Below, piece after piece: positions 1,306 through 20,000 of a stretch of DNA of 20,000 nucleotides. Below the pieces are notes generated by a model. It saw only the letters and a program-made list of their open reading frames with translations, ran no database searches and had not been told where the DNA came from. The position numbers and the translations under genes are program-made. This DNA comes from an uncultured virus (IMG/VR IMGVR_UViG_3300021087_000002) (lineage: Duplodnaviria > Heunggongvirae > Uroviricota > Caudoviricetes), in the IMG/VR virus record IMGVR_UViG_3300021087_000002; one strand, written 5' to 3'. Numbering within the stretch: the first letter of the stretch is position 1; the number at the start of each line of letters is the position of its first letter.

Positions 1306-2000
1306 TGGAAGCCCTTGTTATTACCATAAAGGGTAATGAATTAAGTGAAACTGCCGCCGCTAACTGTATTGCATCTTCAGCTAAGTTGGATAATAAATTT
1401 AGAGTAAAGACCTTTGAAGCTACCACACCAGAAGATGTTGAAGAGTGGGTTAAGGCATACAAGCTTACATGGAATTGGCCTTGGGATGGTGAGATCCATG
1501 ACATGGCCTCTGGACTTAGGAAGGTGGCATATCAAACGGCTAACCGACATGCTCGTGTGGCATGTTCAATGAGTCATTTTAGATTATGGGATAGATGTTC
1601 TAGAAACAAATCGCCTATGCTTATACTAGAGCATGATGCAATATTTACAGACAAGATTAACGTTAAGACCTACCTAAACAAGGGATTTAATATCATAGGT
1701 ATTAATTCTCCACTAGGAGCAACACGTAAGTCACAACAATTCCATGATATAATACAGAACAGAAAAGAAGTTATACAACCAGTTCCCCATATAGATGGTT
1801 GGGGTGTGCCTCAAGGTATCGCTGGAAACAGTGCATATATACTAACACCAGATGGGGCTGATGATTTGCTGAGAGCATCCTATCAGTATGGTCTGTGGCC
1901 TAATGATGCTATAATGTGTAGACAGATGATAAAGCATATAGGTGTGACTAAGAAGTATTACACTACAATTCAACGTACTAGGAGTACGACTACGTTATGA
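1305..2000 (+). CDS. Glycosyltransferase family 25
   Basis: ACSMSHFRLW, LILEHDA, GNSAYILTPDGA and PND motifs. TAATG translational coupling. Confidence 0.85.
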   Translation: MEALVITIKGNELSETAAANCIASSAKLDNKFRVKTFEATTPEDVEEWVKAYKLTWNWPWDGEIHDMASGLRKVAYQTANRHARVACSMSHFRLWDRCSRNKSPMLILEHDAIFTDKINVKTYLNKGFNIIGINSPLGATRKSQQFHDIIQNRKEVIQPVPHIDGWGVPQGIAGNSAYILTPDGADDLLRASYQYGLWPNDAIMCRQMIKHIGVTKKYYTTIQRTRSTTTL

Positions 2001-2647
2001 GAGCATTTGTTATCACAATAAAAGATAATCCACAGAGTGTGGAGATGTCTGATCGTTGCATCAAATCATTTAAAAAGCATAATGATGATAGTATAGAAGC
2101 ATTTGATGCTATAACACCAGAAACAACTGAAGTGTTTTCTTTGGCACATTACCACGGAGTTCCTGTAAAGAACTTCTTAGAGAAATACTCTAGATATGAT
2201 AGATGTGTATCCGCATTCCTATCACATTTTCTTTTATGGAAGAAGTGTATTGAGCTAGACGAATCTATTATCATATTCGAACACGATGCTGTTGTTAAAG
2301 CACCCATTCCTAAGATGCCATTCAACGGACTTGTGAACATTGGAAAACCAAGCTATGGTAAATACCTCATACCTAACCTAGGTCTTGGTAAATTGGTTTC
2401 AAAACAATACTTACCCGGAGCACATGCGTATGCTATTACACCCAAGGGTGCTGAAGCTATCATTGCCGAGACAGTATTCAATGCACAACCAACAGACGTT
2501 TATCTTAACAATAGATTATTTCCATGGATTGAAGAGTACTACCCATGGCCTGTAGATTGTGAAGATAGTTTTACAACTATTCAGAATGAGACAGGTTGTT
2601 TAGCCAAACATAATTATGGAAACGGAGAAGACTATGGGATTATCTAG
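1997..2647 (+). CDS. Glycosyltransferase family 25 (paralogue)
   Basis: AFLSHFLLWKKC, IIFEHDA, GAHAYAITPKGA and PTD motifs. ATGA overlap. Confidence 0.85.
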   Translation: MRAFVITIKDNPQSVEMSDRCIKSFKKHNDDSIEAFDAITPETTEVFSLAHYHGVPVKNFLEKYSRYDRCVSAFLSHFLLWKKCIELDESIIIFEHDAVVKAPIPKMPFNGLVNIGKPSYGKYLIPNLGLGKLVSKQYLPGAHAYAITPKGAEAIIAETVFNAQPTDVYLNNRLFPWIEEYYPWPVDCEDSFTTIQNETGCLAKHNYGNGEDYGII

Positions 2648-3266
2648 TAAACAATTCAATAAACTTTATATAACAGGTTGTGATAAGAATACAGACTGGA
2701 TGCTACCTTGGTTCGAAGAGAACTTTACTCTACACAATCAAGATGCACAATTGGCTGTATATGAGTTCGATACATTCAGAGAGGATTTGGAAGGTTGGTT
2801 TAAGAAACCTGCAGCGATGATAGATGCGTCTCAGATTGCAGATCAGGTTGTTTGGATTGATACCGACTGCCACATCAAGGGCAATCTAGATGGGATCTTT
2901 AATCACATCACACCCAATAAACTTACTATGGCTATTGATCGTCCTTGGACTACACGCCGTTCTAATCGTGGAACTTGGTATAATAGTGGTGTTGTGGGCT
3001 TTGAAGGTGTTCCACCAGTACTATCCGAATGGGCTAGATACATTCAAGATGGCTTGACAAAAGAAGTTGGTGATCAGGAAGTATTGAACTGGATGTTAGG
3101 TGGGGATCCTATTAGAGAGATTACTCACATGAATACATTGCCACCTATGTACAATTTTCTACGCCTAGATATACAAGATGAGTACCCAGGATATGAGAGT
3201 GCTAAGGTTGTGCACTGGACAGGTGGTAAGGGTAAAGAAGTAATTAAAGAGATGATGAATGTCTGA
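2634..3266 (+). CDS. Nucleotide-diphospho-sugar transferase (GT8-like)
   Basis: WIDTDC (DxD), YNSGVV, GDQEVLN, YN and VVHWTG motifs. GGAG upstream of ATG 2634. Confidence 0.8.
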   Translation: MGLSSKQFNKLYITGCDKNTDWMLPWFEENFTLHNQDAQLAVYEFDTFREDLEGWFKKPAAMIDASQIADQVVWIDTDCHIKGNLDGIFNHITPNKLTMAIDRPWTTRRSNRGTWYNSGVVGFEGVPPVLSEWARYIQDGLTKEVGDQEVLNWMLGGDPIREITHMNTLPPMYNFLRLDIQDEYPGYESAKVVHWTGGKGKEVIKEMMNV

Positions 3267-4504: not shown

Positions 4505-4999
4505 ATGAATGATGATAAATTAGGCTACTTGGCTATTGGTGCCGCCGCTATACTAATTGCTTTTACTGCGACAAGTGCAAAGGCAAACAATGCAACGCCA
4601 ATTAACGGTACTATTCAAGATTATTATAAAGTTGTACAAGACAGTGAACCATACACAAAGAAAGAGTGTGTGAATGTAAACGTTCCAGTATATGGTAATG
4701 TTACACAAGAAGGAGATGCCGCAGGTGGAGCCTTGCTTGGTATGATCCTTGGTGGTCTTGTTGGTAAAGGTGTTACAGGTGACGATAAAGGTGCCGCCGC
4801 AGGAGCTATCTTTGGTGGTCTTGTTGGTGCCGATAAAGGTGCTAAACCAAAATCTGGACAGGTTGTCACAGGATACCGAACTGAGAACCGTTGCGATTAC
4901 GTAACTTATTATCGTACCATTGAGCGTACTGAGTATGATTACTCAATCATTAATTGGAAAATTGACGGTGTTACTTACACAACTGAATTTGTAAAATAA
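4505..4999 (+). CDS. Glycine-zipper 2TM (YcfJ-like) exported/membrane protein
   Basis: Signal peptide ending AKA, glycine zipper GGALLGMILGGLVG...GAAAGAIFGGLVG, two Cys, AAGGAG RBS. Confidence 0.8.
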   Translation: MNDDKLGYLAIGAAAILIAFTATSAKANNATPINGTIQDYYKVVQDSEPYTKKECVNVNVPVYGNVTQEGDAAGGALLGMILGGLVGKGVTGDDKGAAAGAIFGGLVGADKGAKPKSGQVVTGYRTENRCDYVTYYRTIERTEYDYSIINWKIDGVTYTTEFVK

Positions 5000-5631
5000 T
5001 GAGCGTCACGGAGTATACAGTAGCTCCGATAACCATACAGGAAGCCACACCATTTGTAGAGAATTGGCACTACTCCAAGAATACAAATGGTTTGGCTACA
5101 CGATATTGTTTTGGACTGTTTAGAGGATCCGAAATGATTGGTTGTATGATTTACGCCTACTTAGGTATGGCGAGTGTTTGGAAGAAGTATGGTGAAGTAG
5201 AGACAGACGTAGTAGAACTAAGGAGACTATGCTGTATTGACGATACTCCCAAGAACACTGAAAGCTACTTTATAGCGAAAACTATTAAGTGGTTGAAGGC
5301 AGAGACTGATTGTAAAGTAGTAGTGAGTTATGCAGATACCATGCAAGGTCACGTTGGAACTATATACCATGCATCTAACTTCTATCATCTAGGCATGACA
5401 GCCAAGGGTAGATCGATAAAGATTAAAGGTAATAATCGTCTCTATCATGAGAAGACTATTAGGACATACTATCAACCTGTGAACGGAGAAAGACGTTTGA
5501 AACCATATGCTCAGAAGATCAAAGAGCAGTTGGAGAATGGTGAAGCAGAGTATGTCCATAGTGAAGGTAAACACATATTCGTCTATCCTTTGAATAAAAA
5601 AGAGAGACGAAAGTATAGGAAGTTAATATGA
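4999..5631 (+). CDS. mom: Mom-like DNA adenine-modification protein (GNAT fold)
   Basis: WHYS, ELRRL, KNTESYFI and VSYADxxxGHVGTIYHASNF are the conserved blocks of phage Mu Mom homologues. Confidence 0.85.
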   Translation: MSVTEYTVAPITIQEATPFVENWHYSKNTNGLATRYCFGLFRGSEMIGCMIYAYLGMASVWKKYGEVETDVVELRRLCCIDDTPKNTESYFIAKTIKWLKAETDCKVVVSYADTMQGHVGTIYHASNFYHLGMTAKGRSIKIKGNNRLYHEKTIRTYYQPVNGERRLKPYAQKIKEQLENGEAEYVHSEGKHIFVYPLNKKERRKYRKLI

Positions 5632-6206: not shown

Positions 6207-6740
6207 ATGGTTCATTTGACAAGCCTAGATATGCTAAAGAGGACAGGAACGAATGCTGAGAGTGATGAATGTTATACTCCATCAGATCAGATCATTCCTC
6301 TTCTTAAATATTTAGATAAGGATAAGACTTACTATGAAGCAACTTCTGGAATCTCTTCTAACATACTTGACGGAATGGTTAAATTCGGTTATAATGTGGT
6401 TGGAAGTGGGGGAAGAGACTTTTTTGAATGCAATTCTGATGACGTGTTTGATGGGATTATTACTAACCCACCTTATAGTCTAAAGGATAAGTTCATTGAA
6501 CACTGCTATTCGTTAGGGAAACCATTTGCGTTATTCCTACCTGTAGCATCTTTCCAAGGTGGTAAACGTGGACAGATGTTCATGGACTATGGTATGTCAT
6601 GTTTAGTCTACAATAATAGAGTAGACTTCACAGGTGGTGGTGCACCACATTTTGGTAACGCTTGGTTTATGCATGGGATCCTACCACCCAACACGATATA
6701 TTGGGCTAATAACCCAAAGATGAGAGGAAAGCGAAAATGA
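6207..6740 (+). CDS. Small DNA amino-methyltransferase (N6-adenine type)
   Basis: SDECYTP, DFF, catalytic IITNPPYS, LFLP and RVDF motifs. Confidence 0.8.
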   Translation: MVHLTSLDMLKRTGTNAESDECYTPSDQIIPLLKYLDKDKTYYEATSGISSNILDGMVKFGYNVVGSGGRDFFECNSDDVFDGIITNPPYSLKDKFIEHCYSLGKPFALFLPVASFQGGKRGQMFMDYGMSCLVYNNRVDFTGGGAPHFGNAWFMHGILPPNTIYWANNPKMRGKRK

Positions 6741-7798
6741 AGGTAACAGTAGAACGTGATAAGATCACAGATGAGATCAGCGAGATCTTCGACTATGAGT
6801 TTGACGGAACATCTACGTTCCATCCTCATGAGATTAATTCATTAGATCGTGAAACCGTTCTATCTGATTTTGGTATTGGTTTAATTGTGGGACCTTCGGG
6901 ATCTGGCAAGACTACTTTACTGAAAGAGTTTGGTGAAGAGTATGAACCTTATTGGTTTGATAACAAATCTATTGCTTCTCATTTCGATGACATCGATGAC
7001 GTACAGGACAGACTAGGTGCTGTTGGATTTAACTCTGTACCGTCTTGGATGCGTCCCTATCATGTACTATCTAATGGTGAACAGTTTAGAGCTAGGTTAG
7101 CTCGACAGTTAGACAGCAACATTGTTGTTGATGAGTTCACATCTGTTATCGACAGAGATGTTGCCAAGAGTTGTTCTAATGCTATCTCACGATATGTTAA
7201 GAGACACAACTTAAAGAACATTGTATTTTCATCTTGTCATTATGACATTATTGAGTGGTTGCAACCAGATTGGGTATTTGATACTCAGACTGGTAAGCTG
7301 ACCACAAGGGGGTATCAAAGGCCAGATATCGTTCTGGAAATTTTACCTTGTACCAGAGACATCTGGACGCACTTCAGCGACCACCACTATCTCGACCACA
7401 ACATCCACAAAGGTGCATCTTGTTGGATCGCAACATGGAACGGCAGACTTGTCGGATTTCTTTCTAGCCTAAGCATGCCTTCGGGCAGTCTTAAGAATGC
7501 ATGGAGAGCACATAGAGTTGTGATACTTCCAGAGTTCCAAGGGCTAGGTATTGGTGCCAGACTTATGGATGCCCTAGGTGATATGCACGTTGCAGAAGGT
7601 AAAAGATTCTTTCTCAAAACAAGTCACCCTAGACTAGGCGAATACTGTAATAGAAATGATGCTTGGAAAGGCACATCAAAGAACGGTATTGCCAGACCTG
7701 ACTATAAAACTAATTCTAGTACCTATGGCGGATTTGCTGAAGGACTACAAAAGCATATGAATAGAATATGCTATTCCCATGAATATATCGGAAAATAG
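6737..7798 (+). CDS. ABC-family ATPase fused to a GNAT acetyltransferase (COG2401-like)
   Basis: Walker A GPSGSGKTT, signature LSNGE, Walker B VVDEF, H-loop SSCH. C-terminal HHYL and RVVILPEFQGLGIG acetyl-CoA motif. Confidence 0.9.
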   Translation: MKVTVERDKITDEISEIFDYEFDGTSTFHPHEINSLDRETVLSDFGIGLIVGPSGSGKTTLLKEFGEEYEPYWFDNKSIASHFDDIDDVQDRLGAVGFNSVPSWMRPYHVLSNGEQFRARLARQLDSNIVVDEFTSVIDRDVAKSCSNAISRYVKRHNLKNIVFSSCHYDIIEWLQPDWVFDTQTGKLTTRGYQRPDIVLEILPCTRDIWTHFSDHHYLDHNIHKGASCWIATWNGRLVGFLSSLSMPSGSLKNAWRAHRVVILPEFQGLGIGARLMDALGDMHVAEGKRFFLKTSHPRLGEYCNRNDAWKGTSKNGIARPDYKTNSSTYGGFAEGLQKHMNRICYSHEYIGK

Positions 7799-9806: not shown

Positions 9807-10730
9807 TTGAGAAAGTTTTTAAATTATATGGCGGAAGCCGAAGTAATAGACGAGGAGTATATCGAAGCACACTTTGATATTCTTCTTGAAAAGCTTATTA
9901 CATTTGGTGGTAAGGCATATCCAAAGTTTGGCAACGTTGTAATCATGGCGGGCGGAGCGGGATCTGGTAAAGGTTTTGTTAAGGATAATCTAGTTGGACT
10001 TGAAGGTAAAGTCTTTGACGTGGATGCTCTTAAGACTGCCGCCGCCAAAGCACCTAAGATTATTGCTAAGGTTAAGGCTGAGACAGGCCAAGACTTGGCT
10101 AAGATCGGTGGTAACCTCAAGAAGGCAAGTAATGTAAGTGCCATGCACGATATCATCTCAAACCTTCTAAACCTACCAGATAAGAAACAGGCGGCATTCT
10201 TTGCTTCTGTATTTTCATCTGCCCCTGATCGTAAGCCTAATATTATTTTTGATGTTACGCTAAAGGATCTACAGAAATTAAATAACATTACACGTCAAGT
10301 ATCTGCCCTAGGGTATGATAAGAAAAGCATTCACATTGTGTGGGTAGTTAATGATATTGAGGTTGCTAAGGCACAGAACAAGAAGAGGGATCGTGTGGTT
10401 CCTACTGACATTCTTGTCAACACTCATAGAGGTGCTTCTGCCACCATGAATGATATTGTGAACATGGGTAACGGTCTTAAGAAGTATATGGACGGAGATA
10501 TCGTGTTTGCATTCAATAAGGTTGGTGTAGACAGTGAACTCGTTAAGTCTGGCAAGAGCGGTAAAAAGATTGGCATGAAGGGTAAGACCGAGGGTGGTCA
10601 ATATCTAAAGGATGCTGAATACTTCTATGTTAAGCGTAAGGGTGCACGAGCTATTCCTGTAGCCAAGTTGGATAAACAGATACGTATGAAGATCTCCAAA
10701 TATGTACCAAAGGGAGTGGAATGGAACTGA
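9807..10730 (+). CDS. P-loop kinase of the zeta-toxin/AAA_33-like family, late-expressed
   Basis: Walker A GGAGSGKG, DVD, Walker B IIFDVT, lid NKKRDRVVP. GGAG RBS with TTG start. Confidence 0.75.
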   Translation: MRKFLNYMAEAEVIDEEYIEAHFDILLEKLITFGGKAYPKFGNVVIMAGGAGSGKGFVKDNLVGLEGKVFDVDALKTAAAKAPKIIAKVKAETGQDLAKIGGNLKKASNVSAMHDIISNLLNLPDKKQAAFFASVFSSAPDRKPNIIFDVTLKDLQKLNNITRQVSALGYDKKSIHIVWVVNDIEVAKAQNKKRDRVVPTDILVNTHRGASATMNDIVNMGNGLKKYMDGDIVFAFNKVGVDSELVKSGKSGKKIGMKGKTEGGQYLKDAEYFYVKRKGARAIPVAKLDKQIRMKISKYVPKGVEWN

Positions 10731-11128
10731 TGCTAACATTTGCTGAACACCTACAAGAAGCCAAAGAACCCACAGTAACAGCCAAGGTCATGAAAGACTT
10801 TGAGAAGGTTGTGGATAAGTTATTTAAGAAGTTTGACATGGACTTTAACTTCACCAGACATTTTGCGGATCGTATGACAGACAAACGCAATGACCCTAGT
10901 ATTACTCTCAAAGAGTTAGCTGACTTCATTAAGAAGATCTATGCTAAACAAGGTAAGAGTATTAAGGATATGAAGGGTGCCGAAGCTGTTATTAAAGACA
11001 TGCAGAAGGATCTAAACATCCCTATTGCAATCAAGTATGATCAACGCAATGATGAGTTTGATGTTGTTATGAAAACAATTATGAGAAAGAAGAACTTCTC
11101 AACCCCAAATAAAGTGATAAAATATTAA
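10730..11128 (+). CDS. Late protein, possible RelE/BECR-like nuclease fold
   Basis: TGATG coupling. N-terminal MLTFAEHLQE, FTRHFADRMTDKRN motif, C-terminal VMKTIMRK. Confidence 0.6.
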   Translation: MLTFAEHLQEAKEPTVTAKVMKDFEKVVDKLFKKFDMDFNFTRHFADRMTDKRNDPSITLKELADFIKKIYAKQGKSIKDMKGAEAVIKDMQKDLNIPIAIKYDQRNDEFDVVMKTIMRKKNFSTPNKVIKY

Positions 11129-11136
11129 TTTAGCCC

Positions 11137-11165
11137 TTGACAATACGGTCAACAAAGGTTAATAT
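11137..11165 (+). promoter_or_regulatory. Sigma70-type promoter
   Basis: Intergenic TTGACA-N17-TAATAT. Confidence 0.7.
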
Positions 11166-11187
11166 AAGATGAATTAAGAAAGAATAT

Positions 11188-11769
11188 ATGATGAATAATA
11201 AAGTGATTCTAACCGACTGTGATGGCGTTTTGTGCGATTGGGTTAGTAAATATGTCCAGTGGATGTTACGTCAAGGTTATGTCATGAAGATGTATCCCGA
11301 AGGTACATATGACATGGAGAAAGTCTTTGGTATTGACAAAGATGAATGTAAGAAGCTTGTACGAATGTTTAACGAAAGTGCTGACATTCAATACATGGCT
11401 CCTTTACGAGATGCCATTAAGTATGTTAAGAAGTTACACGAAGAGCATGGGTACGTGTTCCGTTGCATTACTAGTTTGAGCCTTAGTCGTTCTGCTTATA
11501 AGGCACGTGAGGCCAACCTAAAAGCTTTGTTTGGTGAGACTGCCTTTGAAGATCTTGTGTGTCTAGATACTGGTGCTGACAAGGATGATGCTCTTGAGCA
11601 ATATCGTGACAGTGGTATGGTTTGGATTGAAGACAAGCCTGAGAACGTTGAGCTTGGTAAAAAGCTTGGTCTTGATTGTATTATGATTGACCATGACTTT
11701 AACCGTGGTACTGTTGAGGATGTCTTCGTTGCTAAAAATTGGAAAGACGTGTATGGATACCTCACTTAA
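11188..11769 (+). CDS. HAD-superfamily hydrolase, T4 gp30.2-like (putative nucleotidase)
   Basis: Motif I ILTDCDGVL, motif II ITS, motif III K, motif IV WIEDKPEN. Confidence 0.85.
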   Translation: MMNNKVILTDCDGVLCDWVSKYVQWMLRQGYVMKMYPEGTYDMEKVFGIDKDECKKLVRMFNESADIQYMAPLRDAIKYVKKLHEEHGYVFRCITSLSLSRSAYKAREANLKALFGETAFEDLVCLDTGADKDDALEQYRDSGMVWIEDKPENVELGKKLGLDCIMIDHDFNRGTVEDVFVAKNWKDVYGYLT

Positions 11770-12379
11770 GTACGTTAAACTATATTACACATATCTAAAG
11801 GAACTAGGTGTCTCGCAAGAGGTGCCTATTTCTGCATTTCCAGAGAGCGAATTTGAAACGTTTGATGTTAATCATGGTAACGTTGGGGCAACCTTTGAAA
11901 AATTTATTACAGTGTATGAGAATAAAGATCAATACCTGTATATGTCTATGTACGATAATGTAATCAATAATGAAGAGCCTGAGTACGTCAAGCGAAACAT
12001 GAAAGATCTTATGGAAACTATTCGTTATGATAACAAAAGTCGTATGGTAGAGATAGGATTTAAGTGGAAGAGTCCATATCATCAATCGGAATTATGGAAG
12101 TCTGATAAGACACGGCTGTTATTTAAGGCATTTCAACACTTTCGTGGTCTGGCTGAGAAAGGTGAATGGTGTGGTACTAAGGGTATAGATGGTGATACTG
12201 TTGTTGTATACCCTAGAGCATGTAAGGATTGGCTAACATACACGACTTCATCAATGGATATTGGGACAAAACAAAGGCATTCCATGGCTAAGAGATTTGG
12301 CTTTGGAGAAGTATCATTTGAGGGTACGCAGTTTGCTACATATGATAAAGGTAAACTAATCCCATGGAGAAAGACATGA
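11753..12379 (+). CDS. Hypothetical protein
   Basis: Long ORF overlapping both neighbours by a few nucleotides. No family recognised. Confidence 0.65.
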   Translation: MDTSLKYVKLYYTYLKELGVSQEVPISAFPESEFETFDVNHGNVGATFEKFITVYENKDQYLYMSMYDNVINNEEPEYVKRNMKDLMETIRYDNKSRMVEIGFKWKSPYHQSELWKSDKTRLLFKAFQHFRGLAEKGEWCGTKGIDGDTVVVYPRACKDWLTYTTSSMDIGTKQRHSMAKRFGFGEVSFEGTQFATYDKGKLIPWRKT

Positions 12380-12636
12380 GCGACATATTTGATTTTGGGT
12401 TTACGGCAGTCACTGAAGACGAGCTAGAGTATTCACAAAAGGCTGTTGCAACAGCTACAAAGGCTAAAGAAGAAGCCAACACAACACAAGAGCGATTGGA
12501 TAAACTGTATAATGCAGTTATTCCTTTGCTGACTAATTTAAAGAAGAACCCTGAGAAAGATTATATCCTCTGGCCTAATCGCCTAGATAAGGTAGAGCAG
12601 TTTGAAACTGTGATAACAAACATCTATAAAGGATAA
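12376..12636 (+). CDS. Hypothetical protein of a type seen in T4-like phages
   Basis: GGAG RBS, ATGA overlap. DFGFTAV...LKKNPEKDYILWPNR. Confidence 0.75.
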   Translation: MSDIFDFGFTAVTEDELEYSQKAVATATKAKEEANTTQERLDKLYNAVIPLLTNLKKNPEKDYILWPNRLDKVEQFETVITNIYKG

Positions 12637-12639
12637 CTT

Positions 12640-13263
12640 ATGTTAACGATGTCGATCATCGGTGGGCTTATATGGAGTCAGATCATATCGCATTTTGGTG
12701 CGAGTATTCTGCTACACAGACATTATTGCCATAATCAGTTTAAGGTGCCACCATGGTTTGAGACTATGGGATTGGCTATGCTTATGGTAGCAGTCATTAG
12801 GTCACCCATTGGTTGGATTGCTTCTCATAGGATGCACCACACCCACTCTGATACGGATAAGGATCCCCATGCACCCCAACACGTGGGCTATTGGAAGGTT
12901 CTATTTACGATATGGACTATACCACGTATCCCATCAAAGTATGCCAAAGATCTTTATCAAAACAAAAAGCTTGTGTTCTGCCATAAGCATTGGTTTAAGA
13001 TAGTTGCATGTGTGTGGGTAGTGTCATATCTGATATCCCCATACTTCTTTATAGGGTTTGCTCTAATCCCATTCATATTCGCTAAGGTGGGCTTCGGTCT
13101 ATTAAACACTGTTGCACATGCCAATGGTGCTTTAAACGTTCCTTGGTTGAATTTTTTTATTGCAGGTGAAGGGTATCACAAGAATCATCATGATAACTGG
13201 AAAAGAGTACGCCTACATAAGTATGACACAGGCGGATGGATTGCAGAGAGATTGTTTAAATGA
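12640..13263 (+). CDS. Membrane fatty-acid desaturase (delta-9/DesC-like)
   Basis: Three His boxes (HRHYCH; HRMHH with SD..DPH; EGYHKNHH), NTVAH and hydrophobic segments. Confidence 0.9.
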   Translation: MLTMSIIGGLIWSQIISHFGASILLHRHYCHNQFKVPPWFETMGLAMLMVAVIRSPIGWIASHRMHHTHSDTDKDPHAPQHVGYWKVLFTIWTIPRIPSKYAKDLYQNKKLVFCHKHWFKIVACVWVVSYLISPYFFIGFALIPFIFAKVGFGLLNTVAHANGALNVPWLNFFIAGEGYHKNHHDNWKRVRLHKYDTGGWIAERLFK

Positions 13264-13862
13264 AAAAGAACCAACTACCAAGTATAATGAAGCTGAACGT
13301 AGATATAGACTTATCTGCATTAAGGAAAGCTACTGATGATCTAGCATCTAAGTTTGTGGATGTACGAACTGCTAATCCTGGGCTTTGTATGAACCACGAA
13401 GAGTTGGTTAAGGATGTCTATGATAACTTTGAACAGATAAACCTCACAACACCAAGTGAGATCTTGCCACACACGGCTTCTATTAAAGAACGATTGAAGC
13501 GTAGGGAAGAGCATTTGTATAATGTACCAACGAGTGAATATACTGATAGTTACTTCGAAAAGGTGGTAACACAGTGTAAGGCTCCTGCATCTCGTATACG
13601 AATCACAAAGCTTGCTCCATCAAAGACTATTCCATTTCATGTGGACTATGATGTATCCTATGCGGTACGTTGTATTGTACCCATCTATGGTGATAATAAC
13701 GCCGTTAATCTGTTTAGACGAGATGGTAAGCTAGAGGCATATAACCTTAACTGTGGAACTGCCTATTTTTTAAACATCGGATACCCCCATGCCGTAGTCA
13801 ATATGAGTGACAAACCTAGAATTGCCTTAATGTTTAGTTTGGATGGTACAGATGACTTGTGA
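13260..13862 (+). CDS. 2OG-Fe(II) oxygenase (Asp/Asn beta-hydroxylase-like cupin)
   Basis: RIRITKL, HVD, distal PHAVVN, 2OG-binding R in PRIAL. Confidence 0.85.
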   Translation: MKKNQLPSIMKLNVDIDLSALRKATDDLASKFVDVRTANPGLCMNHEELVKDVYDNFEQINLTTPSEILPHTASIKERLKRREEHLYNVPTSEYTDSYFEKVVTQCKAPASRIRITKLAPSKTIPFHVDYDVSYAVRCIVPIYGDNNAVNLFRRDGKLEAYNLNCGTAYFLNIGYPHAVVNMSDKPRIALMFSLDGTDDL

Positions 13863-14640
13863 TAACCAACCAGAATATCCTAGATCCCATATGTGGCCTG
13901 TTGCACGAGAAGTGCAAATAAAAGGATATAAAATTTTTCATGAACTAGAGCATACCGAGCAATCTTACATTGACTACATGAAAGGCTTTGGTGAACTAGA
14001 GAGACATGAACTGTTTATGAACTCTAAGGAAGTACCAGAACTATTCTATGTAACAGACAGACGCACTGAGAGTGGTGATAAGATAGGTATGTTTGGTGGT
14101 GGAGAGCTAGGATGGCACTCTAATGGAAACTCTAGGCATAAGATAGACAAGATCCTTATCAGTTTATACTGTGTGGACGGAGATCCTAACACCACTCTAT
14201 CGGTGTGTAACACGTCACAACCCTTCTATGATCTATCTGATGAGGATCAAGAGTACTTTAAGAACATCACTATACGTCTTAAGTTTAAGAATAACACAAT
14301 GTATGAGCTAGATGAAGATGATCCCGAACTAGAGTTTATGAGTAAGAACAAAGGATCTATCATACCATTGGTAGGAAGACATCCCCACACGGACAAGTAT
14401 TATTTTTATTTTCCTTACCACTTTATCTGTAGAGCATGGCATGGTAAGACACGGATCGATCATGAAGAGCTTATAGAGAGACTTAAGCCTATTATCTTTA
14501 AGAGCAAGTATCAGATCCATCATGTGTTTCAAAAGGGTGATATGTTACTAATGGATCAGTTGACAACACTCCATAGGAGAACTCCTGTGATGGGTGACCG
14601 TATGTTATGGAGAGCCGCTGGTGACTATTCAAAGGTATAG
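13852..14640 (+). CDS. TauD/TfdA-family dioxygenase (HxN variant)
   Basis: WHSNG, T in NTT, PLVGRHP, GDMLLMDQLTTLHRR, RMLWR. Confidence 0.85.
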   Translation: MTCDNQPEYPRSHMWPVAREVQIKGYKIFHELEHTEQSYIDYMKGFGELERHELFMNSKEVPELFYVTDRRTESGDKIGMFGGGELGWHSNGNSRHKIDKILISLYCVDGDPNTTLSVCNTSQPFYDLSDEDQEYFKNITIRLKFKNNTMYELDEDDPELEFMSKNKGSIIPLVGRHPHTDKYYFYFPYHFICRAWHGKTRIDHEELIERLKPIIFKSKYQIHHVFQKGDMLLMDQLTTLHRRTPVMGDRMLWRAAGDYSKV

Positions 14641-15526
14641 AAGACTATTAAGAGCAAACCCTTGGGTAGAAGTACCTTGCCATAAAGACGTTTTAGTTTT
14701 GCTTTCAGAACAAAAGGTATCTGATACATACTACAGACGTGGAAGCGGAGAAGCTACCGAAGACCTAAACATAGCCGAATCACTTCATAGAAATTGGGTA
14801 AAGGATATGGTAGATCTATCCGACTTTCCTTATTGCTATGTTACTAATGGTGCTACTGATGCTATACACTACTGGAGACTGATGCATGGTAAGGAATGGC
14901 AGAAGTTTGAGGGTGAATACGAATATCCTGATATGATTGGTATTGAGGGTCGAAGCATGTGTGATGTCGAGGGACAGCACATGAAGAACCATAGAGCCGC
15001 CTTAAATGCATCTGTAGATCCTAACCAAACTCTATATGTATCCAACCCATCTAGTGCTGATGGTAATATCTTCAGTCCCAATATGCACAAATGGAAAAAC
15101 CAACCCCCTGTTATTCTTGACTGCACATACGTATCATCCACACCTATTAAAAAAATAGAAGTACCGTCTAATACTGAGCAAATCTTTTTCTCGTTCAGTA
15201 AGGGCTTTGGTGTGGTTGGTCAAAGGATTGGATTTGTATACACAAAGAAACCCCATTCTATACTACACACCCTTAAAGAGTTTGAGAACTGGAACTATGG
15301 GTCGGTAAAGACTGCTTCTCTTCTTATGTCTAACTTTAAGGTTGATGAGATGTACAACAGGCACAGGGATAAACAGCTATCAATATGTGACGAATACAAC
15401 CTAACACCTTCGGATTGTTTCTATTTGGCTACAACATATGATGATTACTATGAGAAACGCAGACGTATGAGATGGAATGACAGTGCCAGGATATGCATCA
15501 CCCCTTTATTTGACCACTATATATGA
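14621..15526 (+). CDS. PLP-dependent enzyme, aminotransferase class I/II fold
   Basis: TNGATDAI, SNP, ILDCTY, SFSK (PLP lysine) followed by GQRIG, terminal R. GTG start 8 nt after GGAG. Confidence 0.85.
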   Translation: MTIQRYRRLLRANPWVEVPCHKDVLVLLSEQKVSDTYYRRGSGEATEDLNIAESLHRNWVKDMVDLSDFPYCYVTNGATDAIHYWRLMHGKEWQKFEGEYEYPDMIGIEGRSMCDVEGQHMKNHRAALNASVDPNQTLYVSNPSSADGNIFSPNMHKWKNQPPVILDCTYVSSTPIKKIEVPSNTEQIFFSFSKGFGVVGQRIGFVYTKKPHSILHTLKEFENWNYGSVKTASLLMSNFKVDEMYNRHRDKQLSICDEYNLTPSDCFYLATTYDDYYEKRRRMRWNDSARICITPLFDHYI

Positions 15527-16404
15527 CGAAGGAGTTTGATATGGATAAGCAAATATTAGATTATACAGACGAGGAATACATAGATCTCGTTAAGAAGATT
15601 GTTGCTGATGGGTCTACAGTACTACATGATCAGAACCTGACACGTCAAGAACTAGCTAAAGTATGTGCTAGGATGGGTAAGGTAGAAGAGCTAGATTATT
15701 TTATGAACCCCAAGGACAGCCCACAGATTTCTATTGTGTCTGGTAAAGTTGTTGATGGTAAGGCTATCGGGATGTTCGGTCCTACTGAGTTAGAGTGGCA
15801 CGCCAACGGAACTGGTAGATATAATTTTGATGAGATATGTGTAGGTCTATACTGTAAGAAAGGATGTGTTGACACCGTGCTTTCTATTGTAGACCAAAGA
15901 GCGGCATTCCAAGAACTATCCGAAGAAGATAAGGAATACTACCGAGGGATCTATATCAATCTTAATAACGAGAGAGGTCGTGCACAGATCTGGCGTGATG
16001 ATGGTGTTTACTCTAAGGCATATAATGCTTCTGGTGAGAATACATTTAGAACAGGACAGGAACATTACAAGGAAACGATTGATCGTAGACCTCTTGTGGC
16101 ACGTCACCCTGTTGATGGTTCTGAATATTTTTATCCTATGTTCATCTATCTGTACAAAGCATTCTATGAGGATGGTAGCGAGGTAGAAGACTTCCAAGCG
16201 TTTCGAGATAAGCTATATGATACCATTACACGAAGTAAGTATATGTTCCACCATGTATTCCGTGATGGTGATCTGTTGTTCATGGATCAATTGCTGACAT
16301 CCCATAGACGTTCTGCCGTAAAGGATAAGGACAGAGAGCTATGGAGAACTGCATTTGATTACTCTAACACTGTAGAAGACTATACTCCTGTGGTGTTCAC
16401 GTGA
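15523..16404 (+). CDS. TauD/TfdA-family dioxygenase (HxN variant, paralogue)
   Basis: WHANG, PLVARHP, GDLLFMDQLLTSHRR, RELWR. Confidence 0.85.
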   Translation: MTKEFDMDKQILDYTDEEYIDLVKKIVADGSTVLHDQNLTRQELAKVCARMGKVEELDYFMNPKDSPQISIVSGKVVDGKAIGMFGPTELEWHANGTGRYNFDEICVGLYCKKGCVDTVLSIVDQRAAFQELSEEDKEYYRGIYINLNNERGRAQIWRDDGVYSKAYNASGENTFRTGQEHYKETIDRRPLVARHPVDGSEYFYPMFIYLYKAFYEDGSEVEDFQAFRDKLYDTITRSKYMFHHVFRDGDLLFMDQLLTSHRRSAVKDKDRELWRTAFDYSNTVEDYTPVVFT

Positions 16405-17078
16405 AACAGAAGTCCACAGGCAGACCTATACCATGGCCTAAGATCCATAAGCTAGATGCCTTGGCGTTGGGTGCCAATGAACAAGTACCTGTGCCTCTTA
16501 AAGAAGACTATCTCATGGAAGATATGCACTATCTAGACACAGATGAGGCATATCCACTGTTCGAGAAACAAGCTAGGATCATTAAGAAGGCTGGTTATAA
16601 AAAAATATTAGACGTGGGATGCAGACACGGTCCGATTAACAAAATACTACACAAAAATTTAAAGTATACTGACTATGAATACTTTGGGTTTGATACGAGT
16701 CAAGAGCCTATTGATATCGCTATTGAGACGTGGAAAGACTATGATAACATCAACTATGAGTGTACGTCATGGGAAGGTTTCTCTACTGACTTTGAACCTG
16801 ATGTAATCGTCTTCAGTGGTGTTCTACTCTATATAAAGGACGATGAAGAACGTGCTGACTTCTTTGATGACTTTATGTTTAGGCATCGGTGCAAAAACGC
16901 TATTATCCAAGAGCCATATCACTTCCAAAGACATTGGGACGATAGGCTTATCCTAAATACAATAACAAACGGTGGATTGGACTTCCTTCAAGAAGACTAT
17001 GAGGTGGACGAGCACTACTTAGATCTGCCTATATTTGCTGGTAAGAGAGTATTATACGATGTCACTCCTAAGTCTTAG
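16401..17078 (+). CDS. Class I SAM-dependent methyltransferase
   Basis: ILDVGCRHG, GFDTS and DVIVFSGVLLY motifs. GTGA overlap. Confidence 0.85.
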   Translation: MKQKSTGRPIPWPKIHKLDALALGANEQVPVPLKEDYLMEDMHYLDTDEAYPLFEKQARIIKKAGYKKILDVGCRHGPINKILHKNLKYTDYEYFGFDTSQEPIDIAIETWKDYDNINYECTSWEGFSTDFEPDVIVFSGVLLYIKDDEERADFFDDFMFRHRCKNAIIQEPYHFQRHWDDRLILNTITNGGLDFLQEDYEVDEHYLDLPIFAGKRVLYDVTPKS

Positions 17079-17670
17079 TACAAGCGCATGTCCTGATAGT
17101 CTTAATCATAGGGGTCTGATGGTACTCAATGAGTGTGTAGACCTAGGTGTTATAGATTGTTTATGTAACTATAACCTTCCTGTTGTGAATGTAAATGGTA
17201 TGGACAGTGATGTACCACCCGAAGTCAAACGTCTCTTAGATCATATGTTTAAGTTTGATAAATTTATTTTTGCCATACCTGAGTTCACTGGAATGATGAG
17301 TGCATCGACTAAGAACCTTCTTGATTGGTTTGTTGTTGCAACGAATATGAACCTTGATCATGGTAAAGGCTATCCATGGTCTGATAAGCATGTGATGCTG
17401 TTTACCTTTACTCCCAGTGGATCTGAGGGTGGGAAGAGGCATATGGACGGTACTAAGGCTATCTTTAAGAAGCTTGGGGCTAATGTAATACATACCGAGG
17501 TGTTTAACTATGGGTGGGAGACGGTTATCCCAGGTAATACTGAGCCGTTTAAAGAAGCCGCCGATAGGATAAATAATTTTCTAAGCTATAAACCTAACAG
17601 TAAGAATAGTTTTAAAAACAAATACGAAGAATGGAACAGACAATGGCTAAAGACAGAGGTGGATTACTGA
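17059..17670 (+). CDS. NAD(P)H-dependent FMN reductase (flavodoxin-like)
   Basis: S...DSLN N-terminal loop, FAIPEFTGMMSASTKNLLDW, WSDK and GG motifs. Confidence 0.85.
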   Translation: MSLLSLSTSACPDSLNHRGLMVLNECVDLGVIDCLCNYNLPVVNVNGMDSDVPPEVKRLLDHMFKFDKFIFAIPEFTGMMSASTKNLLDWFVVATNMNLDHGKGYPWSDKHVMLFTFTPSGSEGGKRHMDGTKAIFKKLGANVIHTEVFNYGWETVIPGNTEPFKEAADRINNFLSYKPNSKNSFKNKYEEWNRQWLKTEVDY

Positions 17671-18398
17671 TAGATGCTGGTGATTTCGATGACGAGATCG
17701 ATGGCCTTTGTGAGTACATTAACATACCAAGCTACAGAGATCTCCTATTGTCTATGTGGGAACAGATCGTTGACAAGGAGACAAACCTAGGTAAGGGAGA
17801 AGCACGTGCATTGGTTGGTTGTCATAGTCATGATTATCACAATGTATTTGGTAAGACACGATGGCAATCCTATGTCCTTGGAGATCTAGCAGATCAAGAC
17901 AATGGTAATGCCGCTATCTTTGAACCCTTTATGAAGATCATGAGAAAGGTACATCCCCACTTTCAAATGAGATCCACAGGCTTTAACTTCTCTGATGATG
18001 TAAACAAAGAGCTATATGTCCATACAGATCTAGATCCTAAGCTAGAACACCCCAATTATTTTAATTTTATTCTACCTGTTGCTGGCAGATCTCGTATAGA
18101 TTACTATGAAACCAGACCAGAAGAGATTTGGTTGCCTGAGAGGAACAGTCGTGACGAGTATTACTATCACGAATTTCGTCCTAAGCTCAAGTATGACCTA
18201 GAGTTTAATAAAGAACGACAGATGGGACACATACATGTGAACGAAGAGAGTGGGTGTGTGATGCTAGATACTGATGTTCTACACGGTGTACAGGTACAGG
18301 AAGCACCAAGACTGGCATTCTGTGTACGATTTAATAATATCCCTGCCCATATAGACTTTCATGCGTTTAAGAAGCATGCCGAGAAGGTTCTTAATTGA
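17643..18398 (+). CDS. Cupin-type 2OG-Fe(II) oxygenase-like protein
   Basis: VHTD, FNFILPV, LDTDVLHGV, PRLAFCVRF. Confidence 0.75.
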   Translation: MAKDRGGLLIDAGDFDDEIDGLCEYINIPSYRDLLLSMWEQIVDKETNLGKGEARALVGCHSHDYHNVFGKTRWQSYVLGDLADQDNGNAAIFEPFMKIMRKVHPHFQMRSTGFNFSDDVNKELYVHTDLDPKLEHPNYFNFILPVAGRSRIDYYETRPEEIWLPERNSRDEYYYHEFRPKLKYDLEFNKERQMGHIHVNEESGCVMLDTDVLHGVQVQEAPRLAFCVRFNNIPAHIDFHAFKKHAEKVLN

Positions 18399-18949
18399 AA
18401 ATAGTATCATACATACGCAATGGCATAAGAACACACGAAGATGATGATCTGTGCCACAGTGCATTCCTACAGATGGAAGCAGAACGAGACGGAGATCGTC
18501 TAAGCGATAATTATTCGTTTTCAAAACTAAACCTAGACCGTATGGTAATGTTTAACTTCGTCTTTGACGGAGATCAGCCTGTTCTATGCAGTGGGTGTGA
18601 GAACATATACCCAGGTGTTGTGAGGGTTATGTCTCGTTATTATCACTTTAAGAGCTATAGAACTGATGGCACGTCCCTATTAGAAAAGGTTGATGACTTC
18701 AAAGAGCTACAGTATTGTGTTAATGAGTTGGATGTGCCTCTAATCATATGGACTAGGGAGTTCAGTAAAGGGTTCTTTACACGTCTTAAGAAGGGTAGAC
18801 CAGATGTCTTTGGTGATTGGGAAGTATATCCCGACACACTATTGATCGGGCATCCCCCACGTAAGAAGAAAGATAATTACCAATATGTATTCCATCGTGG
18901 AGACATCACCCATCTACGCAACCCACAATATGAATTCGATTTTCTCTAG
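18395..18949 (+). CDS. Hypothetical protein, possibly GNAT-fold acyltransferase
   Basis: Beta-hairpin FVFDGDQPVLCSG followed by VRVMSRYYHFKSYR, resembling GNAT motif A. TTGA overlap. Confidence 0.5.
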   Translation: MKIVSYIRNGIRTHEDDDLCHSAFLQMEAERDGDRLSDNYSFSKLNLDRMVMFNFVFDGDQPVLCSGCENIYPGVVRVMSRYYHFKSYRTDGTSLLEKVDDFKELQYCVNELDVPLIIWTREFSKGFFTRLKKGRPDVFGDWEVYPDTLLIGHPPRKKKDNYQYVFHRGDITHLRNPQYEFDFL

Positions 18950-19346
18950 AGGCATTCACAAAGGTGTGCTTCTTGGTAGTATCTACTAGGTAATAAGATC
19001 CATCAGCAGGGTATCTGCTTAATTCATCTTCTATAATAAAAAAATTATCTTCATTTGTTATGAGAGGTATATGCATACGTTTGGTAGGATCCCAATGATA
19101 TGTGTAACACGTCTTGGGTTGCATCTTCATTAGTCTGCTTCTAAACATCCCAAGTTCTTTTAATACCGAATTAGTGTAGGGAATGTCATAGGCAAACTCA
19201 ATAAAGTCTTTCTCAGATGTCGTTAGGTTCTTTAACCTACCTTCACCACCGTTACCTTCTTTTGTTACTTGTAGGGATAGCTGTTCTTTATAATCTGGCA
19301 AACCCTCTATCTCAAGCAGTATCATATCAATGTTTATGGGGTACAA
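18906..19346 (-). CDS. 2OG-Fe(II) oxygenase (Asp/Asn beta-hydroxylase-like cupin)
   Basis: RSRLMKM, HWD, RMHIPLITN, HTFVN, RIHIV. Confidence 0.85.
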   Translation of the reverse strand: MYPINIDMILLEIEGLPDYKEQLSLQVTKEGNGGEGRLKNLTTSEKDFIEFAYDIPYTNSVLKELGMFRSRLMKMQPKTCYTYHWDPTKRMHIPLITNEDNFFIIEDELSRYPADGSYYLVDTTKKHTFVNASRENRIHIVGCVDG

Positions 19347-19767
19347 CAGTCATATCCTTTATTCTGTGAGGTTGATCTAGTATCCAGTCAATGATATATA
19401 CACAGTAATCAATATCTAACTTGTTGGCAACAATATGGGCAACACGTGGAGAATCGAAGTAACCAAATCTAACAATGGTTGTATCTACACCCTGATAGAA
19501 TAGCTGATCATTTGCCTTATCTAGTGCACCCTTTTCTATGGCATACTTATGAGGAACCTTCTTCTGTTCGTCTGGTGAGTTAGAACCAATGTTAATGATT
19601 CTCTTACCCTTCTCAGCCGCTTCATAAAGAAGATCTACTTGGTTATCATGCTTACAGTTAATGAATATTTCACAATCACTCATAGACACGTTATTGTATT
19701 CTTCGGCTAATGCTAACCCAAGTCCTCTACGTGCTCCTGTTATGTGTATCTTATTAAACCATATCAT
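19327..19767 (-). CDS. Minimal short-chain dehydrogenase/reductase
   Basis: ITGARRGLG, FINC, INIGS, catalytic YAIEK. Start placed at ATG 19767 because the TTG in the ORF track is a -35 box. Confidence 0.8.
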   Translation of the reverse strand: MIWFNKIHITGARRGLGLALAEEYNNVSMSDCEIFINCKHDNQVDLLYEAAEKGKRIINIGSNSPDEQKKVPHKYAIEKGALDKANDQLFYQGVDTTIVRFGYFDSPRVAHIVANKLDIDYCVYIIDWILDQPHRIKDMTVVPHKH

Positions 19768-19772
19768 AGAGT

Positions 19773-19780
19773 TATTTATC
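19773..19780 (-). promoter_or_regulatory. Possible late promoter variant (GATAAATA)
   Basis: NATAAATA on the minus strand, 5 nt upstream of the SDR ATG. Confidence 0.45.
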
Positions 19781-19813
19781 AAAGTATTCCCCTGTTTTCC
19801 GAATTGGTCCTTT

Positions 19814-19842
19814 ATTATATCATGATTCTTTGATTCTGTCAA
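19814..19842 (-). promoter_or_regulatory. Perfect-consensus sigma70 promoter with two GAATC sites in the spacer
   Basis: Minus strand reads TTGACA-GAATCAAAGAATCATGA-TATAAT (17-bp spacer, extended -10 TG). Confidence 0.85.
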
Positions 19843-19867
19843 GTCTTAATTTAATTGAAATTAGTGC

Positions 19868-19927
19868 TTGACACCTTCGAATCAATCTGCTATAAAATAA
19901 GTATACCAACGAGAAAGAGAGAATCAC
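19868..19927 (+). promoter_or_regulatory. Repeated early promoter and leader cassette (copy 3)
   Basis: TTGACA-N17 (CGAATCA, TG)-TATAAA, then TAAGTATA...GAGAAAGaGAGAATCAC-ATG. Confidence 0.85.
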
Positions 19928-20000
19928 ATGATTAACATTTATCAAATTCAATTGACTGACGAGCAAATCGATGCTGTTAATGCCAATGAGCGTGTGCCTG
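19928..20000 (+). CDS. 5' end of an early gene (partial; MINIYQIQLTDEQIDAVNANERVP...)
   Basis: Starts at the cassette ATG and is open to the window end. Confidence 0.7.
   Translation, partial: MINIYQIQLTDEQIDAVNANERVP

Follow-up and report, generated by a model that had tools for sequence, protein, structure and literature searches.

Within a 20,000-nucleotide stretch of DNA from an uncultured virus of the class Caudoviricetes (IMG/VR record IMGVR_UViG_3300021087_000002), to which we refer in its full length as the window, eleven adjacent genes (12640-19767) encode a membrane desaturase, five oxygenases of the iron/2-oxoglutarate (Fe/2OG) type or fold, a miniature aminotransferase-like enzyme, a methyltransferase, a flavin mononucleotide (FMN) reductase, a candidate acyltransferase of the GNAT fold and a miniature short-chain dehydrogenase/reductase (SDR). 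Our analysis identifies this cassette as a mobile unit carried by T4-like marine phages (pelagimyophage type), which is inherited as one set. The eleven genes probably form one pathway that operates in the infected cell on a precursor supplied by the host, and we put the probability at roughly 0.4 that its product is a lipid-linked amino acid, that is, an amine-bearing molecule joined to a fatty acyl chain and of the aminolipid or N-acyl-amino-acid kind.

We regard the cassette as one functional unit because the set is kept through gene shuffling and relocation, two baits recover it reciprocally, two GNAT-like types replace one another and the same families recur in bacteria. With the desaturase as bait, 48 viral loci were collected, or 49 counting the cultured phage Mosig, and tblastn placed the AspH-type hydroxylase in 46, the TauD-type oxygenase in 43, the pyridoxal-phosphate (PLP) enzyme, i.e., the mini-aminotransferase, in 42 and the methyltransferase in 41 of these 49 loci. 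The profile of the first TauD type (TauD1), used as an independent bait with the best 80 of 142 relatives, yielded 73 new loci, of which 71 contain the hydroxylase, 71 the methyltransferase, 67 the desaturase and 64 the PLP enzyme; in the six loci without desaturase the cassette runs to or near the contig end. The homologues are thus not scattered independently of one another, as each of the two baits recovers the other genes.

After merging of loci with an identical core protein, 63 distinct variants were obtained, the window and Mosig included. A core of five genes, encoding the desaturase, an AspH-type hydroxylase, a TauD-type oxygenase, the mini-aminotransferase and the methyltransferase, was complete in 47 variants according to blastp at the level of open reading frames (ORFs), and at least four core genes were present in 55 of the 63. 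Less constant were the FMN reductase (32 variants), the JmjC-like oxygenase (28), the GNAT type of the window (24), the second AspH type (24), the second TauD type (21) and the mini-SDR (14). Gene order is widely shuffled between copies, the desaturase usually stands at one edge of the cassette and sometimes on the opposite strand, and the flanks are not conserved, with each upstream gene of the window found in at most two of the 49 desaturase-baited loci. Overall, the synteny survey across viral contigs that the initial annotation had called for reveals a set that is kept while its order and position vary. Furthermore, a second GNAT-like family (Mosig_00073-like, borderline Pfam match) is present in 29 of the 63 variants; the two GNAT-like types occur together in none of the 63 and one or the other in 53, and profile-profile comparison revealed no similarity between them. 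This mutual exclusivity looks like the replacement of one needed step.

Other copies of the cassette carry further companions, among them a peroxiredoxin (30/63 variants), a 2OG-FeII_Oxy_3 oxygenase, radical S-adenosylmethionine (SAM) enzymes and a family of about 180 aa with an HxD..H pattern. In total, about a dozen further accessory families were encountered, eight of which remained without a Pfam match at a threshold as loose as E 0.1. The unannotated ~180-aa family (e.g., L063:11607-12212) has an invariant H-x-D ... H motif and is probably a further small oxygenase. On another viral contig, a gene for a TonB-dependent receptor with Plug and beta-barrel domains adjoins the cassette (L081:5676-7484, minus strand).

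Cellular copies are rare. A scan of 185,579 species genomes returned three loci, all on uncharacterised contigs of metagenome-assembled genomes (MAGs), and a close TauD-type relative was found in four of the 401 Bdellovibrionota genomes scanned. The first locus, on a 118-kb contig of a Bacteriovoracaceae MAG (G002), is an island of about 21 kb by coordinates, flanked by aroA-aroB-aroC and by Rha and recombinase genes. It contains in a row the hydroxylase, the TauD type, the FMN reductase, the JmjC-like oxygenase, the methyltransferase and the GNAT type of the window, and in addition a second TauD type, radical SAM genes, a PLP gene, two desaturases and, in tandem, four genes of the ~180-aa HxD..H family (L124:4138-6256). 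The PLP gene and the two desaturases of this island are accompanied by an adjoining acyl/peptidyl carrier protein (L131:2260-2490; PF00550, E 8e-14, motif DLGVDSLD) and by a PP-loop ATPase (L131:262-1323). A second genome (G152) has three TauD-type genes, two hydroxylases, a PLP gene, a desaturase, a PP-loop gene and radical SAM genes, with no class-I methyltransferase match found in its cassette, and in a third (G273) two TauD-type genes and a desaturase are accompanied by an FA_hydroxylase, a SPASM-type radical SAM gene and an HTTM-domain protein. The desaturase accompanies the cassette in all three, i.e., in three of the four matching genomes (G276 left out), and the families of the bacterial islands are the same as those of the window at 25-60% identity. 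None of these loci is a characterised operon that matches gene for gene; the cellular copies found are uncharacterised Bdellovibrionota islands only. One ORF of a bacterial island, designated 'u86', was discarded as an antisense artefact over a desaturase gene.

In comparisons with the viral loci L016 and L053 (L016 only for the methyltransferase), all eleven genes had 0.08-0.36 non-synonymous and 0.71-0.88 synonymous differences per site, a substitution pattern which shows the eleven predicted genes to be real and under purifying selection. In comparison with a third locus (L050), identity is 57-75% up to position ~13624 of the window and 99-100% beyond it, and judging from this alignment a sharp recombination joint lies at ~13624, within the gene for the first hydroxylase. 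A megablast search of the 7.2-kb stretch against phage records returned no matches.

The genomic position of the cassette differs between phages. In Mosig it lies between a block of radical-SAM and sugar-type genes and the tail fibres, a site which corresponds to the 'host recognition cluster' in the available text of Zaragoza-Solas et al. (PMC7029224). Upstream of its cassette, the closest longer relative of the window has genes for UvsX, a DnaB-like helicase, thymidylate synthase and an endolysin, and the nearest of the virus records searched, which shares 80% of the sampled words of the window, extends to the left into genes for ribonucleotide reductase (RNR), RNase H, PhoH and glycosyltransferases. 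Likewise, L053 and the viral genome G001 have the cassette beside UvsX, helicase, ThyX, RNR and PhoH genes. Of five viral records with the cassette, four encode a T4-type major capsid protein, and the two complete genomes with terminal repeats are among these four. In one record (G406:C1:110962-112079) the capsid gene match is in pieces with in-frame stops, which could reflect an intron, an insertion or an assembly fault. The RNR large subunit has its best matches, at ~60% identity, in phages that infect various alphaproteobacteria, which does not settle the host.

All eleven genes were found by ORF listing at the positions given in the initial annotation, and its eleven family labels stand after hidden Markov model (HMM) searches and structure prediction, by virtue of HMM matches, catalytic motifs or predicted fold, three of them at fold or motif level only. 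Catalytic residues were taken from family alignments built from relatives on viral contigs. The first gene (12640..13263, plus strand) encodes a 207-aa membrane di-iron desaturase of the stearoyl-CoA/DesC (Delta9) type (PF00487, E 7.4e-13, 49.3 bits against a cut-off of 29.7), whose histidine boxes HRHYCH, HRMHH and HKNHH (HRxxxH, HRxHH, HxxHH) are conserved in the family alignment and have the pattern of the stearoyl-CoA/DesC Delta9 enzymes. His160 is nearly invariant, and from comparison with SCD1 we take it to belong to the NxxxH motif. This protein, alone among those of the cassette, has transmembrane-like segments. It matches Mosig_00080 at 73% identity, the only match at E<=1e-5 among 50,697 phage records, with none of the cyanophage type.

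Two oxygenases belong to the AspH/LpxO family (Asp_Arg_Hydrox, PF05118). The first (AAH1; 13260..13862, plus strand; E 8.1e-6, 26.2 bits against a cut-off of 22.6) has H127, D129, H177 and R187 invariant in its subfamily, and its profile matches L-proline cis-4-hydroxylase (4p7w, E 6e-8) and the beta-hydroxylase 7v4f. The second (AAH2; 18906..19346, minus strand; E 1.3e-9, 38.5 bits against the same cut-off) has H77, D79, H120 and R130 invariant in its own subfamily. Two further oxygenases are of the TauD/TfdA family (PF02668), namely TauD1 (13843..14640, plus strand; E 7.5e-18, 65.8 bits) and TauD2 (15523..16404, plus strand; E 2.1e-24, 87.3 bits), both against a cut-off of 27. The nearest relatives of the TauD-type proteins are the small-molecule enzymes RdpA, ScoE, CarC and TauD, the TauD2 profile leading to CarC and TauD, and the taurine dioxygenase equivalog NF007104 scored 17 bits against a cut-off of 313. 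Both proteins depart from the His-x-Asp/Glu..His triad in that the two histidines are kept and asparagine takes the place of the carboxylate (H92-S-N94 with His244 in TauD1, H93-A-N95 in TauD2). In the profile alignment of TauD1 with ScoE, 'WHSN' falls on 'WHAD', Asn94 on the iron-binding Asp and the distal His on the distal His. His-Ser-Asn is present in 65/65 distinct TauD1-type sequences, and in the TauD2 type 24 of 28 distinct sequences have His-x-Asn and four have His-x-Asp. Going by these alignments, both are TauD-fold relatives with a predicted non-canonical metal site. Loss of the carboxylate need not abolish hydroxylation, because human AspH is active with two histidine ligands only, according to the part of the source available (PMC13168262).

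The fifth oxygenase (17631..18398, plus strand; 255 aa) is a probable JmjC/FIH-like Fe/2OG enzyme, with H131, D133 and H218 (HxD..H) invariant in 13 sequences. It had no Pfam match, only chance-level hits in a profile search of PDB chains, and weak Foldseek matches to FIH, JMJD5 and TYW5 (E 1.5e-3, TM-score <=0.26) on a model with a predicted local distance difference test (pLDDT) score of 65. The 184-aa product of the last plus-strand gene (18395..18949) likewise had no Pfam or NCBIfam match and only chance-level hits among PDB chains. Its model (pLDDT 81) gave 44 GNAT matches at E<=1e-3 with Foldseek (best E 4e-5), and with VIA-align GNAT-superfamily entries made up 50 of the 50 matches listed (Z 7.7-9.2); the model is thus assigned the GNAT fold by two independent aligners, which makes the protein a candidate acyl- or acetyltransferase.

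The PLP protein (14594..15526, plus strand) is a miniature enzyme of the class-I aminotransferase fold, similar to HisC and CobD. PF00155 is matched with 20.7 bits, barely over the cut-off of 19.7, and in 20 sequences N158, D176, K203 (in SxSK) and R299 are invariant, with Tyr179 in a conserved LDCTY motif. By comparison with aspartate aminotransferase, we take R299 to be the alpha-carboxylate-binding residue of class-I aminotransferases. In a profile search of PDB chains HisC and CobD were matched at E ~6e-4; the PLP proteins are 262-310 aa long versus 335 aa and more for the matched chains. A reading as a serine-palmitoyltransferase-type enzyme was rejected on the basis of these profile matches and of the motif D-x-x-Y, which we assume to be the aminotransferase form, with D-x-x-H as the oxoamine-synthase form. 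In the ESM Atlas the protein falls in viral clusters only, none of which has a functional name.

The class-I SAM-dependent methyltransferase (16401..17078, plus strand; PF13649, 28.5 bits against a cut-off of 27) has generic PDB matches, namely juvenile-hormone acid methyltransferase, phosphoethanolamine N-methyltransferase and BamL (E 2e-4 to 2e-3). The NAD(P)H-dependent FMN reductase (17035..17670, plus strand; PF03358, E 1.1e-14, 54.7 bits against a cut-off of 24) is of the YhdA/YieF/azoreductase type, the three being matched in the PDB profile search at E 6e-6 to 1e-4. The miniature SDR (19327..19767, minus strand) is assigned from its motifs, T35-G36-x-x-R39-G40-L41-G42 with Y100/K104 (TGxxRGLG, YxxxK), which are invariant in six sequences; it had no Pfam match, its weak matches are FabG-type (best PDB E 0.013, NCBIfam E 0.0019), and it is ~146 aa long versus ~250 aa for an SDR domain. 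A comparison with PHROGs returned just two families, one labelled generically as 'taurine catabolism dioxygenase' and one of tRNA-methyltransferases.

The initial annotation had noted that no scaffold or carrier gene lies in the window, and this holds: the window has no nonribosomal peptide synthetase (NRPS), polyketide synthase, carrier or precursor-peptide genes. The observation now extends to five cassette-bearing phage records, in none of which a PF00550 carrier gene was found, while 11 of 14 control genomes were positive. Since no carrier gene was found in any of the five records, the substrate would be supplied by the host. The 90-aa ORF directly upstream of the cassette (12364-12636) was rejected as a carrier or precursor, as it has no Ser-attachment motif and occurs in only five loci, corresponding to two distinct variants.

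In the pathway we propose, the HisC-like aminotransferase would interconvert a 2-oxo acid and an amino acid, the five oxygenases (two of AspH/LpxO type, two of TauD type, one JmjC-like) could hydroxylate at several positions, and the methyltransferase and the GNAT-fold protein would modify the amine. The acyl chain would receive a double bond from the SCD-type membrane desaturase, the FMN reductase may deliver electrons to di-iron or mononuclear iron centres, and the mini-SDR could oxidise or reduce a hydroxyl or keto group. The lipid link is suggested by the constant membrane desaturase of the SCD type together with the acyl carrier protein (ACP), PP-loop and FA_hydroxylase companions in bacteria, and the amino-acid link by the motifs of the aminotransferase, the kinship of AAH1 to a hydroxylase of free proline, the small-molecule relatives of the TauD-type proteins and an NRPS cluster of Photorhabdus in which like classes of tailoring enzymes are combined (PMC2938197). 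Moreover, early expression of the cassette is possible, because a consensus sigma-70-type promoter is present and no T4 late motif lies near the cassette. The initial annotation had envisaged one pathway that builds or decorates an acyl or amino-acid-derived moiety; this idea fits all the evidence presented here, with homologues that travel together and no characterised operon that matches gene for gene, and it is not proven.

A number of observations weigh against the lipid-linked amino-acid product or against a pathway of this extent. Protein substrates are what the AspH, FIH and JmjC families are chiefly known for. The full eleven-gene set of the window is not the minimal pathway, its accessory genes being present in just 14-32 of the 63 variants, and in four loci, which represent two distinct variants (L002/L003 and L034/L035), the desaturase is accompanied by paralogous desaturases and radical SAM genes, and TauD, PLP and methyltransferase genes were not found. 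The individual enzymes score far from characterised lipid enzymes, as the desaturase reaches 38.9 bits with the DesA equivalog model against a cut-off of 400 and AAH2 18.2 bits with the LpxO equivalog (NF033391) against a cut-off of 500; neither AAH1 nor AAH2 has a transmembrane-like segment, whereas LpxO presumably has membrane anchors. The ACP is confined to a single bacterial island (G002), no carrier gene was found in the G152 or G273 loci, and tblastn of the bacterial ACP against the viral loci gave only fragments at E 0.008-0.047 inside an oxygenase-like family. In bacteria, the SPASM-type radical SAM genes of all three islands point to peptides, and in G152 the second GNAT type is fused to a SET domain of the lysine methyltransferase type (L138:16992-17996). 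As to expression, part of the stretch is contained in 20 public runs from 14 studies, of which 14 runs are recorded as RNA; contigs from four RNA libraries of four marine studies (>=95% likeness) cover 26-30 of 30 bins of 10500-20000, and in one run single contigs span 10500-13600 and 15979-18651. This presence speaks for the pathway as a hint of expression and not as a proof, as the contigs carry no strand, ends or level and may derive from DNA.

Several of these points would suit a different substrate. The main rival, which we nonetheless consider unlikely, is the modification of peptides or proteins, with the oxygenases, the methyltransferase and the GNAT protein decorating a ribosomal peptide, a virion protein (e.g., a tail fibre) or a host protein, and the desaturase and aminotransferase as side players. 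AspH-family and FIH/JmjC-like oxygenases are classic protein hydroxylases, the Mosig cassette abuts tail-fibre genes, the methyltransferase weakly matches BamL, an N-methyltransferase of ribosomally synthesized and post-translationally modified peptides, and the SPASM-like radical SAM genes and the GNAT-SET fusion in bacteria fit as well. An SCD-type desaturase and an aminotransferase with a presumed alpha-carboxylate-binding arginine, however, have no obvious role on a protein, and no conserved small ORF travels with the cassette, since the 90-aa ORF upstream lacks carrier or leader features and is found in two variants only. Furthermore, the closest relatives hold the cassette in a replication and nucleotide region, away from structural genes, and the window contains no radical SAM gene. 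On the side of this rival, multi-dioxygenase arrays of phages and bacteria were read as peptide-modifying by Iyer et al. 2010, going by the accessible part of that article (PMC2938197), arrays whose likeness to the cassette is one of description.

A soluble small molecule is likewise improbable as the end product: here the cassette would make a hydroxylated, N-capped free amino acid serving as solute, signal or antimetabolite, and the desaturase would be a separate gene for lipid fluidity. The nearest solved relatives of the oxygenases do have free small molecules as substrates (proline hydroxylase, RdpA, ScoE, CarC and TauD), all proteins but the desaturase are devoid of transmembrane-like segments, and the desaturase usually borders the cassette, in some copies being encoded on the other strand, and stands without the other core genes in L002/L003 and L034/L035. 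Stand-alone Delta9 desaturases are moreover known cyanophage auxiliary genes, as described in the available portion of PMC5776448; yet the desaturase of the window is not of the cyanophage type, Mosig alone matching it in the phage records, and its linkage to the cassette survives all rearrangements and holds in the distant bacterial islands as well. Least of all do we expect a loose island of independent auxiliary genes, for oxidative stress or for the scavenging of nutrients, e.g., TauD/SsuE-like use of sulfonates, held together by linkage in a hypervariable region. The pairing of TauD with an FMN reductase resembles sulfonate-sulfur genes, nearly half of the variants carry a peroxiredoxin, and accessory content varies widely. 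Phage hypervariable regions are known to gather unrelated auxiliary genes (PMC7029224, available text). Against such an island, the set is conserved while the flanks are not (0-2 of 49 loci match any upstream gene of the window), bacterial chromosomes contain the same families, the two GNAT types exclude each other and the taurine dioxygenase equivalog stays far below its cut-off. Returning to the lipid-linked amino acid, one specific version of it would be a long shot, namely that phages of the most abundant bacteria in the ocean carry a pathway, complete and self-powered, which during infection makes a new poly-hydroxylated, N-methylated or N-acylated unsaturated aminolipid from a molecule of the host envelope, and that the His-x-Asn TauD proteins carry out non-hydroxylation chemistry, e.g., halogenation or a substrate-ligated reaction.

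Pelagibacter phage Mosig (EXVC030M, MT647606.1) is the only cultured phage with cassette genes in the 50,697 phage records, where they form a block from Mosig_00072 to Mosig_00081. Amino-acid identity to the window is 73% for the desaturase, 72% for the AspH-type hydroxylase, 63% for the TauD type, 43% for the methyltransferase, 38% each for the FMN reductase and the JmjC-like protein, and 33% for the PLP protein. Mosig differs in its gene order, in having a peroxiredoxin and the other GNAT type, in the position of its cassette beside tail-fibre genes and in the lack of the second TauD type; by tblastn, the GNAT protein and the mini-SDR of the window were not found in it and the AAH2-like match was weak. 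The Mosig genes are annotated singly, and text searches of the genome announcement and the isolation paper did not find cassette terms. Tailoring of ornithine lipids and lipid A (OlsC/LpxO, OlsE, OlsG, OlsB) overlaps with the cassette in enzyme classes, i.e., AspH-family lipid hydroxylases, a membrane di-iron enzyme, an N-methyltransferase and a GNAT-related N-acyltransferase that act on an amino-acid-headed lipid, an overlap at the level of enzyme class. The ornithine-lipid system has no TauD-type or PLP enzymes, and the AspH-type proteins of the cassette are without transmembrane anchors.

The DesC-like Delta9 desaturases of cyanophages (vFAD; Roitman et al. 2017, PMC5776448, available portion) are phage-borne and have three histidine boxes like the desaturase studied here, which differs from them in its length of 207 aa, in its tie to a multi-enzyme cassette and in having no cyanophage record at E<=1e-5. 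The initial annotation had described desaturases and 2OG oxygenases as common in marine T4-like phages, and this needs correction in so far as the desaturase of the window is not the usual cyanophage one. The Synechococcus phage Syn9 has ten tandem dioxygenases and thus, like the window, several unrelated Fe/2OG-type oxygenases including a JmjC-related one in a T4-like marine phage (PMC2938197); its array has tryptophan halogenases, and a PLP enzyme, a methyltransferase and a GNAT protein are not named for it in the accessible text of that article, from which the word 'desaturase' is also absent, the likeness being one of description and not of sequence. In the same text, an NRPS cluster of Photorhabdus contains a clavaminate-synthase-like enzyme, a beta-hydroxylase, a FIH-clade JmjC protein, a GNAT, an aminotransferase and a methyltransferase, classes as in the window; it differs in having four NRPS genes as scaffold and a diaminobutyrate-type aminotransferase, and is likened here by class, not sequence. 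The available text of PMC7029224 does not mention TauD, taurine or aminotransferase and mentions desaturase only for freshwater genomes, and its supplementary tables could list protein clusters. Full-text literature searches found no published description of the cassette. Together, the cassette belongs to a known kind, the oxygenase-rich auxiliary gene arrays of T4-like marine phages, and its composition, with an SCD-type desaturase, His-x-Asn TauD enzymes and miniature PLP and SDR enzymes, is new.

The window has a G+C content of 39-40% throughout and is packed nearly end to end with plus-strand ORFs. The nine plus-strand ORFs of the cassette (12640-18949) each run 4 to 47 bases into the next in longest-ORF coordinates, and some true starts are perhaps later, e.g., GTG 14621 or ATG 17059. 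Two minus-strand ORFs (18906-19346 and 19327-19842) converge on this run, the first of them overlapping the 3' end of the last plus-strand gene by 44 bases. The last minus-strand gene most likely starts at ATG 19767, from which its homologues align; we prefer this start because the TTG at 19842 is part of the -35 box of a perfect promoter. This sigma-70-type promoter (19814..19842, minus strand; TTGACA, 17 nt, TG-TATAAT) has 12 of 12 consensus bases and an extended -10 and precedes both minus-strand genes. The T4 late promoter motif has two matches in the window, which is chance level.

Upstream of the cassette, the plus strand of the window encodes two family-25 glycosyltransferases and one family-8-like glycosyltransferase (1305-3266), syntenic with the viral contig L057, in agreement with the glycosyltransferases of the lipopolysaccharide type reported in pelagimyophages (PMC7029224, available text). 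A Mom-family DNA-modification protein (4999-5631; PF25680, E 2.8e-41) has ~55% identity to genes in phages of Synechococcus, Geobacillus, Bacillus and Enterococcus and is missing from the otherwise syntenic L057. It is followed by a 353-aa fusion (6737-7798) of a P-loop NTPase (residues ~45-180) with a GNAT acetyltransferase (residues ~200-295), by a zeta-toxin-like kinase domain (9807-10730; PF06414, E 2.4e-7) and by an NT5C deoxynucleotidase (11188-11769; E 9.2e-10), the last of which, like the 90-aa ORF, is also found in L054-L058. A link of the cassette to the Mom, kinase and nucleotidase genes, in the sense of DNA hypermodification, was rejected, since these upstream genes do not travel with it.

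Phage-borne multi-enzyme pathways are rare, most phage auxiliary genes being single steps, and the cassette described here is widespread on marine viral contigs. Its sharing with predatory bacteria of the Bdellovibrio type hints at a function linked to the attack on Gram-negative cells. The invariant His-x-Asn branch of the TauD family offers a test case for how metal ligands set Fe/2OG chemistry. With Mosig and Pelagibacter ubique HTCC1062 a cultured pair is at hand in which the product can be sought directly, and its identity would give functions to several uncharacterised protein families, could reveal a new compound derived from lipids or amino acids, and would show what these phages alter in the infected cell.

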